Assembly: GCF_003334315.1 (NCBI RefSeq)
Contig: NZ_QOWR01000139.1
DNA from: Escherichia coli
Lineage (GTDB): Bacteria > Pseudomonadota > Gammaproteobacteria > Enterobacterales > Enterobacteriaceae
Strand: one strand, 5' to 3'
DNA: 269 nucleotides
Position numbers and translations under genes: made by a program. The first letter of the stretch is position 1, and every line of letters starts with the position of its first letter. This document shows, piece by piece, positions 76 through 269 of this stretch. The notes below the pieces were generated by a model that was not told the origin of the DNA, searched no databases, and was given only the letters and a program-made list of their open reading frames with translations.

Positions 76-115
76 AAGGAGAAGAAACAAACTTATTAAG
101 CTAGAATAGCCACGG

Positions 116-269
116 GTGCTTGAGACTGTTTGTCTCAGGTATTCACCGAAAGGCAGACAGAGAAAAGCCCCACCTGACTATAAATCAAAGTTTGTACTGA
201 CCCCAAAAAGTTGGACAGTTAAACACGAGGCATATAGGTCTGATTCCGATATTCAATTGGAGTCAGACC
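116..269 (+). CDS. Speculative ORF fragment (hypothetical protein), GTG start, runs off the right edge
   Basis: This is the only extended open frame in the flank: + frame 2 is open from 110 to 269 after the TAG at 107-109. The first possible start is GTG at 116-118, with no convincing Shine-Dalgarno upstream. The translation (VLETVCLRYSPKGRQRKAPPDYKSKFVLTPKSWTVKHEAYRSDSDIQLESD…) matches nothing I recognise. An open frame of about 51 codons is weak evidence on its own. Confidence 0.12.
   Translation, partial: MLETVCLRYSPKGRQRKAPPDYKSKFVLTPKSWTVKHEAYRSDSDIQLESD
121..137. repeat. Perfect inverted repeat / hairpin (6-bp stem TGAGAC/GTCTCA, 5-nt loop TGTTT); function unassigned
   Basis: Seen directly: 121-126 TGAGAC pairs with 132-137 GTCTCA. 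As RNA the stem could extend with G-U wobbles and C-G/U-A pairs out to about 116-142. No U-tract follows on either strand, so it is not called a terminator. Confidence 0.5.
237..269. repeat. 33-bp near-palindrome (13-bp arms, 11/13 complementary, 7-bp spacer TATTCAA), truncated by the window edge; function unassigned
   Basis: Seen directly: 237-249 is GGTCTGATTCCGA and the reverse complement of 257-269 is GGTCTGACTCCAA. The outer 7 bp are perfect (GGTCTGA/TCAGACC), and the two mismatches would both be G-U wobbles in RNA. The right arm ends exactly at the window boundary, so the true extent is unknown. Confidence 0.5.

Follow-up and report, generated by a model that had tools for sequence, protein, structure and literature searches.

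A probable metastable 5′ hairpin of the hokA mRNA in an IS150-disrupted leader of Escherichia coli

A stretch of Escherichia coli DNA 269 nucleotides long, referred to below in its entirety as the window, carries a stable hairpin at positions 114–144, and the question that this locus raises is what such a structure does, or once did. A preliminary description, made from the letters of the sequence, had considered an RNA processing or stability element, an inverted repeat bound by a protein, a structure occluding a GTG-start open reading frame at position 116, or plain chance. The analysis described here leads to a different assignment, to which we give a probability of roughly 0.87, namely that the structure is the metastable 5′ hairpin of the hokA mRNA which sequesters the element tac, and that it is found here as a relic of a locus broken by IS150. 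The element, its mechanism, the disruption of the K-12 copy and the covariance model of the family are all already published and known.

The window is a mosaic of three parts, comprising the end of an IS1 element (1–75), a segment of the E. coli chromosome (76–191/192, 116–117 nt), and the end of an IS150 element (192/193–269). The features discussed below are as follows.

1–75, minus strand: terminal 75 nt of IS1 (insA-proximal end), with the inverted repeat ending in ...GCATCACC at 75
102–107, plus strand: putative −10 hexamer TAGAAT, with hexamer and spacing conserved in homologous leaders
114, plus strand: putative +1 of the hokA mRNA, placed by position 1 of RF01794, the start of homology, the spacing from the −10 hexamer and the numbering of R1 hok
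114–126, plus strand: tac (translational activator), the 5′ arm of the hairpin, with GGGUGC invariant and positions 7–13 co-varying with each partner
114–144, plus strand: 5′ hairpin, with a conserved 9-bp core (118–126/132–140), a loop (127–131) and four outer base pairs (114–117/141–144)
126–160, plus strand: competing long-range stem, in which 126–135 pair with 151–160 around an inner hairpin (138–140/145–147)
165–171, plus strand: ucb (upstream complementary box, or anti-SD), AAGCCCC, pairing with 114–121 in the 'open' fold
192–269, minus strand: end of IS150, reading TGTACTG... from 193, with base 192 ambiguous, and including the 3′ end of the transposase gene

Positions 1–75 are identical to positions 3001–3075 of locus L002, which overlap an annotated IS1A transposase coding sequence, and the two sequences diverge directly after 75; matches to IS1 in E. 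coli genomes number in the tens of thousands. The IS1 end lies outside the hairpin system and stands in place of whatever native sequence preceded position −38 in the hokA promoter. The only sigma-70-like site called by a scan of the window (41–68, minus strand, CTGCCA-16-TATGAT) is located inside the IS1 terminal repeat and directed into IS1, which fits the transposase promoter of IS1 itself. The junction between IS1 and the hokA segment (75/76) was found as a contiguous match in 0 of 5,426 complete E. coli genomes and in none of the metagenome contigs. Stbl4 and CP131_Sichuan, considered as full-length matches to the window, were ruled out by differing IS1 positions or rearrangements. In CP131_Sichuan, IS1 is inserted 90 nt further upstream in the AT-rich spacer between glyS and hokA, as read directly from the sequence, and in ETEC4088 it would lie ~35 nt further upstream in the same spacer, a position taken only from the span of joined BLAST pieces; the presence of IS1 at differing sites of the spacer suggests that its insertion there is recurrent.

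On the other side, the sequence from 75 onward is the same as that of K-12 between glyS and IS150, and the assignment of the distal end to IS150 is based on annotation together with plasmid copies of IS150 that match from window positions 189–192 onward. Within the IS150 end, in the 3′ portion of the minus-strand transposase gene, lies a second strong hairpin (237–269), composed of 14-nt arms GGTCTGATTCCGAT and ATTGGAGTCAGACC that are 86% complementary and separated by a 5-nt loop, which is also present in the minimum free energy (MFE) fold of the window. The short direct repeats D1–D3 and most of the inverted repeats in the window are two-copy matches with no support elsewhere.

The hairpin at 114–144 is built around a perfect 6-bp stem, TGAGAC/GTCTCA, at 121–126/132–137 (inverted repeat I10) with a 5-nt spacer, exactly as had been noticed beforehand. 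In RNA of the plus strand, the stem continues without interruption to 13 bp, of which nine are Watson–Crick and four are G·U pairs (115·143, 116·142, 118·140 and 120·138), closed by the loop UGUUU; the extension by wobble pairs and the span of 114–144 thus agree with the preliminary description, and the length exceeds its estimate of about 11 bp. The MFE of this segment is −17.2 kcal/mol, with the hairpin accounting for 83% of the ensemble, whereas dinucleotide shuffles of the same segment average −4.45 ± 1.78 kcal/mol (z = −7.16) and none of 200 folds as well. Since the extension needs G·U pairs, the complementary strand is limited to the 6-bp stem, with an energy of −7.5 kcal/mol. The stem is followed by ACCGAAAGG on the plus strand and by no T-run on the minus strand, so that the combination of a stem with a U-tract that marks an intrinsic terminator is absent, and a scan of both strands of the window returned no terminator-like sites, as the first description had already concluded. 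In a longer context, either the whole window or 114–192, the MFE structure is an alternative fold rather than this hairpin, with 126–135 paired to 151–160 and 114–121 to 165–171.

The position of the hairpin with respect to a transcript is indicated by several observations. A segment of the window (114–253) matches the Rfam family RF01794 with 70.1 bits (E = 1.6e-14), above the gathering threshold of 59, although true homology covers only 114–192 of it, the model beyond position ~80 being forced onto IS150 with low posterior probability. Position 1 of the model aligns to window position 114. An intact allele (L003, 315–466) matches the same family with 119.3 bits (E = 2.2e-28), the match ending at the hokA AUG. 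The family is named 'sok', after the antitoxin, but what it represents is the sense strand, from +1 up to the hok AUG, and not the antisense Sok RNA, and automatic annotation with RF01794 would therefore give the wrong strand and the wrong molecule. Other Rfam matches at the K-12 locus (STnc370, rnk_pseudo, Phe_leader, anti-hemB, mir-15 and BSnc120) are weak and all lie far below their gathering scores. A purely sequence-based nhmmer search with the intact leader as the query returned 58 leaders from protein-anchored loci, almost all of which start at query position 1 or 2.

The leader of R1 hok, whose sequence is matched at 100% identity by many plasmids, provides a further anchor, as the numbering of its residues G4, C5, T6, A70, G71 and C72 in PMC9841398 fits a +1 at the G homologous to window position 114. 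In essentially all of 46 leaders, TAGAAT, TATACT or TAGAGT is found exactly 6 nt before GGGTGC, while the upstream DNA otherwise shows no relationship from one genus to another; several genera have a good −35 element, and that of E. coli hokA, GAGAAG at 79–84, is poor. The hokA promoter was not among the sites called by the consensus sigma-70 scan of the window, and it is assigned on the strength of the conserved −10 hexamer and its conserved spacing. Taken from these alignments, a transcription start at 114 appears well supported.

Homologous leaders were collected through the protein and not through the RNA. A set of 68 loci was drawn from contigs representing one genome per species and anchored solely on the Hok protein, with the RNA playing no part in the choice, and yielded 46 distinct homologous leaders ranging from Escherichia to Vibrio, all of them belonging to a HokA/PndA-like clade. 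The loci hokB–E, srnB and R1 hok lie outside the covariation alignments, and R1 hok was folded separately. Two or three leaders in tandem, ~450–520 nt apart, occur in five of the loci (L017, L023, L041, L054 and L070); this arrangement is in line with the duplicated hok loci, or 'islets', of a recent preprint (bioRxiv 10.1101/2025.08.07.668861).

The local hairpin is present in every one of the 46 distinct leaders. In a MAFFT alignment of their first 36 nt, 88.7% of the cells at the 13 pairs are paired, a value that rises to 96.9% for the 9-bp core (118–126/132–140) and is only 47–85% for the outer pairs (114–117/141–144), which are an extension found in the Escherichia-like clade. Changes on both sides of the stem are present at six pairs, for example GAGAC/GUCUC, GAGGC/GCCUC, GAAAC/GUUUU, CUGGAU/GUCCGG and CUUGGC/GCCAUG. 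The observed covariation score was reached by none of 500 shuffles, and sliding the partner by one to three columns as a control reduced pairing to 36–47%. RNAalifold, run without a given structure, recovered the same 9-bp core on both 36-nt and 100-nt alignments. Covariation among homologues had been proposed beforehand as the deciding check, and with a core that is 97% paired it came out in favor of a conserved structure. The pairing is also specific to one strand, with 88.7% of the cells paired on the plus strand, including 128 G·U cells, versus 64.2% on the minus strand, which argues that the constraint acts on RNA of the plus strand rather than on the duplex DNA.

The 5′ arm of the hairpin, tac, has three partners, namely the local 3′ arm at 132–144, which would form the metastable structure, ucb at 165–171, and a 3′ element, fbi, located beyond the window. 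Pairing of 126–135 with 151–160 excludes the 3′ arm of the hairpin; this long-range stem is the MFE structure both in the window and in 114–192, and appears in the consensus of RF01794. Among 47 leaders, 94.3% of its cells are paired, with four compensatory pairs. The helix between tac and ucb (114–121/165–171) is paired in 97.3% of the cells in the same number of leaders, and the GCCCC of ucb is nearly invariant. Taken together, the tac/ucb helix and the long-range stem are 95.5% paired with four compensatory pairs, and the two are mutually exclusive with the local hairpin. An alternative for ucb in intact alleles is pairing with the region of the mok Shine–Dalgarno (SD) sequence, a role taken from PMC9841398.

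The third partner is found downstream of the toxin leader. In hokA, fbi is the sequence UCUCAUUGCACCC at +351 (665–677 in the intact allele L003 and 4795–4807 in the K-12 locus L001), which pairs with nucleotides 1–13, and in nearly all testable loci a 3′ element ending with GCACCC, at +330 to +383, complements nucleotides 1–14. This element co-varies with the 5′ end, as seen for GGGUGCUCUGGAU with AUCCAUGAGCACCC in Rouxiella, GGGUGCUCUUGGC with GCCAAGGUGCACCC in Vibrio, and GGGUGCUUGAAAC with GUUUCCGGCACCC in Edaphovirga. The same 5′ arm thus takes part in a three-way coupled covariation. The tac/ucb and tac/fbi interactions have been described for R1 hok (PMC9841398).

Which of these structures prevails depends on the length of the RNA. 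When growing prefixes of the intact hokA RNA are folded, those of 31 to 55 nt have the local hairpin as their MFE structure; from 58 nt, once ucb has emerged, the long-range fold is preferred (−25.0 versus −21.4 kcal/mol). Folding with flanking context, proposed in the preliminary description as a check, thus gave a divided result, with the hairpin preferred up to 55 nt and the alternative fold in longer RNA. R1 hok shows the same two-state behavior. The barrier out of the hairpin state is estimated at ~14 kcal/mol for hokA and ~16 kcal/mol for R1 hok, values obtained heuristically along a direct path, which makes them rough upper bounds, and with an assumed rate prefactor; a barrier of this height implies that refolding would be slow compared to the seconds needed to make a transcript of ~370 nt.

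A sequence of events can be proposed on this basis. The first ~31–55 nt to leave the polymerase would fold into the hairpin, sequestering tac before its other partners exist, and that this structure forms first in vivo is what both the prefix folding and the literature on R1 lead us to infer. The metastable hairpin would bar the nascent transcript from entering the 'open' fold formed by tac and ucb, in which the ribosome-binding site of mok/hok and the target of Sok would become accessible, and the nascent mRNA would thus be neither translated nor bound by Sok. In the full mRNA of ~370 nt, tac would be captured by the 3′ fbi, giving an inert, locked state. Slow trimming of the 3′ end would then remove fbi, allowing tac to pair with ucb and 126–135 to pair with 151–160, and the mRNA would become translatable and sensitive to Sok. 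The temporal order of folding and its effect on the translation of Mok and Hok and on the binding of Sok are attributed to hokA by homology with R1 hok, and probably hold for the intact RNA. Even intact hokA alleles may be weakly active or inactive, since the chromosomal hokA of E. coli C is reported to cause no post-segregational killing (bioRxiv 10.1101/2025.08.07.668861).

The hokA locus is uninterrupted in about half of the complete E. coli genomes (2,813 of 5,426). In these intact alleles, the leader sequence "...AUCAAAGU" runs on into GAGGCCCCUCUAUGCAUAG..., which holds an SD sequence and an ATG, followed by hokA. The toxin open reading frame begins 150 nt after +1 in the intact alleles, or 31 nt past the far end of IS150 in K-12, on the same strand as the leader. 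This Hok/Gef frame lies outside the window, but on the same strand in every genome holding the segment, and the HokA homologues carry the domain PF01848. A junction between the leader and IS150 is common to 1,643 of the 5,426 complete genomes, K-12 included. In both the window and K-12, the leader is cut after +78/+79, and IS150 replaces 39 nt that contain a mok-like SD and ATG. The missing 39 nt (GAGGCCCCTCTATGCATAG...CCTCT) carry these two elements, and a mok leader is accordingly lacking in the window and in K-12, whereas the intact allele L003 has the SD GAGG and an ATG at 404 that is in frame with hokA. Translation from this mok-like ATG (404–616 in L003) would give a 70-residue product extended at its N terminus, a form of HokA that is often reported by gene callers (for example, P0002, with 891 member sequences).

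The IS150 at hokA is inserted without a target-site duplication and replaces the 39 nt GAGGCCCCTCTATGCATAGACACCATAAGGTTAGCCTCT of the intact allele (392–430 in L003), with junctions at 191–193 in the window and at 3117–3120 and 4562–4563 in the K-12 locus L001. The absence of a duplication and the replacement of 39 nt point either to an insertion accompanied by a neighboring deletion or to recombination between copies of the IS. An allele in strain SW071611 (L004, ~392–394) has neither IS150 nor the 39 nt, and has instead a 46-nt deletion, '...ATCAAAGT|TGGAAATC...', at a GTT microhomology, which looks like a secondary loss of IS150 from an allele of the K-12 type.

In the window, the leader has lost hokA, fbi, the target of Sok and the mok-like SD and ATG, each of them either deleted or separated from it by IS150. 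With the leader thus cut, the hairpin in the window has no toxin gene left to control and is a relic of a broken locus. The mok start and an intact sok region are lacking because IS150 removed them, the stretch around the mok start that an antisense sok gene would overlap lying past the IS150 breakpoint and being partly deleted, and the window is a truncated and non-functional member of the hok/sok family rather than a non-member. This agrees with a preprint in which IS150 is said to disrupt sokA of MG1655 and the five hok/sok pairs of K-12 are called putatively inactivated (bioRxiv 10.1101/2024.04.20.590381). The same preprint describes IS150 at an identical site of sokE in >400 natural isolates, and the insertions in sokE and sokA, together with the hokA junction in 1,643 genomes, hint at a preference of IS150 for the DNA of hok/sok leaders. 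The orphan leader, consisting of a promoter and ~79 nt of structured RNA, is 100% identical beside IS150 in many of the genomes with the junction. We can speculate that this leader and its promoter modulate the expression of IS150, through a transcript antisense to the 3′ end of the transposase gene, or that IS150 targets the leaders of hok/sok loci; we regard such a connection as improbable. If IS150 did target them, its transposase would have a sequence or structure preference for the DNA of an RNA switch.

Several other readings of the hairpin have to be weighed against the folding switch, of which the one closest to it is that the structure serves mainly as a stabilizer of the 5′ terminus. 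The 5′ stem-loop of ompA is an example of such a stabilizer. A hairpin that begins at nucleotide +1 and leaves no single-stranded 5′ end would block both the 5′-end-dependent attack of RNase E and the removal of pyrophosphate and would thus prolong the half-life of the mRNA. However, conservation is lowest (47–85% paired) at the four outer pairs, on which closure of the end depends, and many homologues leave 3–4 nt unpaired; once the mRNA is complete, fbi or ucb is the predicted partner of its 5′ end, so that any protection would come from those pairings, and a folding switch, unlike a static cap, accounts for the three-way coupled covariation. We therefore consider stabilization unlikely to be the main function, while it is compatible with the folding switch as a possible additional role. 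The earlier notion of an RNA processing or stability element was correct in placing the action at the level of RNA, and otherwise only loosely right, as the role known for the family is that of a co-transcriptional trap.

A binding site for a dimeric protein in DNA, for instance a repressor acting on the hokA promoter, or a transposase or host factor connected with the neighboring insertion sequences, would be in keeping with the perfect palindromic 6-bp core and its location just downstream of the promoter. This explanation is highly improbable, as pairing is asymmetric between the strands (88.7% versus 64.2%) and the 128 G·U cells would be C·A mismatches in a palindrome; moreover, the sequence of the stem varies freely while pairing is kept, which is the opposite of what operators do, and the hairpin lies outside both IS1, ending at 75, and IS150, starting at 192/193. 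It is scarcely credible that the hairpin occludes translation of the frame starting with GTG at 116, or that the region is coding, even though this frame is open to the end of the window. Its length varies from 7 to 98 codons among the homologues, with frameshifts and insertions of variable length, and it stops after 25 codons in the intact allele; the GTG is located at +3 of the inferred transcript with no SD sequence, substitutions track base pairing and not codon position, and the documented role of the family is exerted on mok/hok, far downstream. A chance hairpin, or a terminator or attenuator of glyS or of an antisense transcript, is favored by the existence of a stem and by nothing beyond it, and its probability is negligible considering the stability against shuffled sequences (z = −7.2, 0/200), retention with covariation in the 46 distinct leaders from Escherichia to Vibrio and the lack of a U-tract on either strand. 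The terminator of glyS (GCCTGCCATCTGGCAGGC followed by a T-run) is found upstream of the native segment of the window, at about 2877–2911 of the K-12 locus L001.

A structure picked by eye from raw sequence thus probably corresponds to a textbook case of control by co-transcriptional RNA folding, the tac element and metastable hairpin of hok. The three-way coupled covariation of the local arm, ucb and fbi was derived anew from 46 independently collected, protein-anchored loci, extending the covariation of the hok folding model to loci of the HokA type from Escherichia to Vibrio. An apt label for the segment would be 'hokA leader fragment (pseudogene), disrupted by IS150 and flanked by IS1', rather than an unexplained hairpin or a small open reading frame.

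Comparison with the 5′ metastable hairpin and tac of R1 hok (Gultyaev, Franch & Gerdes 1997, which is reference 12 of PMC9841398; Rfam RF01794) reveals a common arrangement. In both systems, the hairpin occupies nucleotides 1 to ~30 of the toxin mRNA, in homologous sequence (GGGUGCUUGAGACUGUUUGUCUCAGG in hokA and GGCGCUUGAGGCUUUCUGCCUCAUGA in R1), and the 5′ arm has three alternative partners, which are the local 3′ arm, ucb and fbi. Both also switch from the local hairpin to the long-range stem as the RNA lengthens. The hairpin of hokA is longer and more stable, with 13 bp and −17.2 kcal/mol compared to −13.7 kcal/mol for the first 34 nt of R1, and, unlike that of R1 hok, it closes the very 5′ end. 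The hokA locus is chromosomal, whereas R1 hok is plasmid-borne, and the mok-like ATG is in frame with hokA in the intact allele, whereas mok is out of frame in the R1 sequence. In the window, unlike in R1 hok, the downstream part with the toxin is cut off by IS150. A second close counterpart is the IS150-disrupted hokA/sokA locus of K-12, to which window 75–269 is 100% identical, with only the window adding the IS1 end that abuts −38. A more distant parallel is provided by the aapA3 toxin mRNA of Helicobacter pylori (Masachis et al. 2019, as presented in PMC9841398), in which transient co-transcriptional hairpins prevent premature translation. The mRNA of aapA3 belongs to an unrelated sequence family in a different organism and shares with hokA the logic of transient hairpins in a type I toxin mRNA; the transient structures of aapA3 are described there as sequestering the SD sequence directly, whereas the hairpin of hokA would sequester an activator element located far upstream of it.
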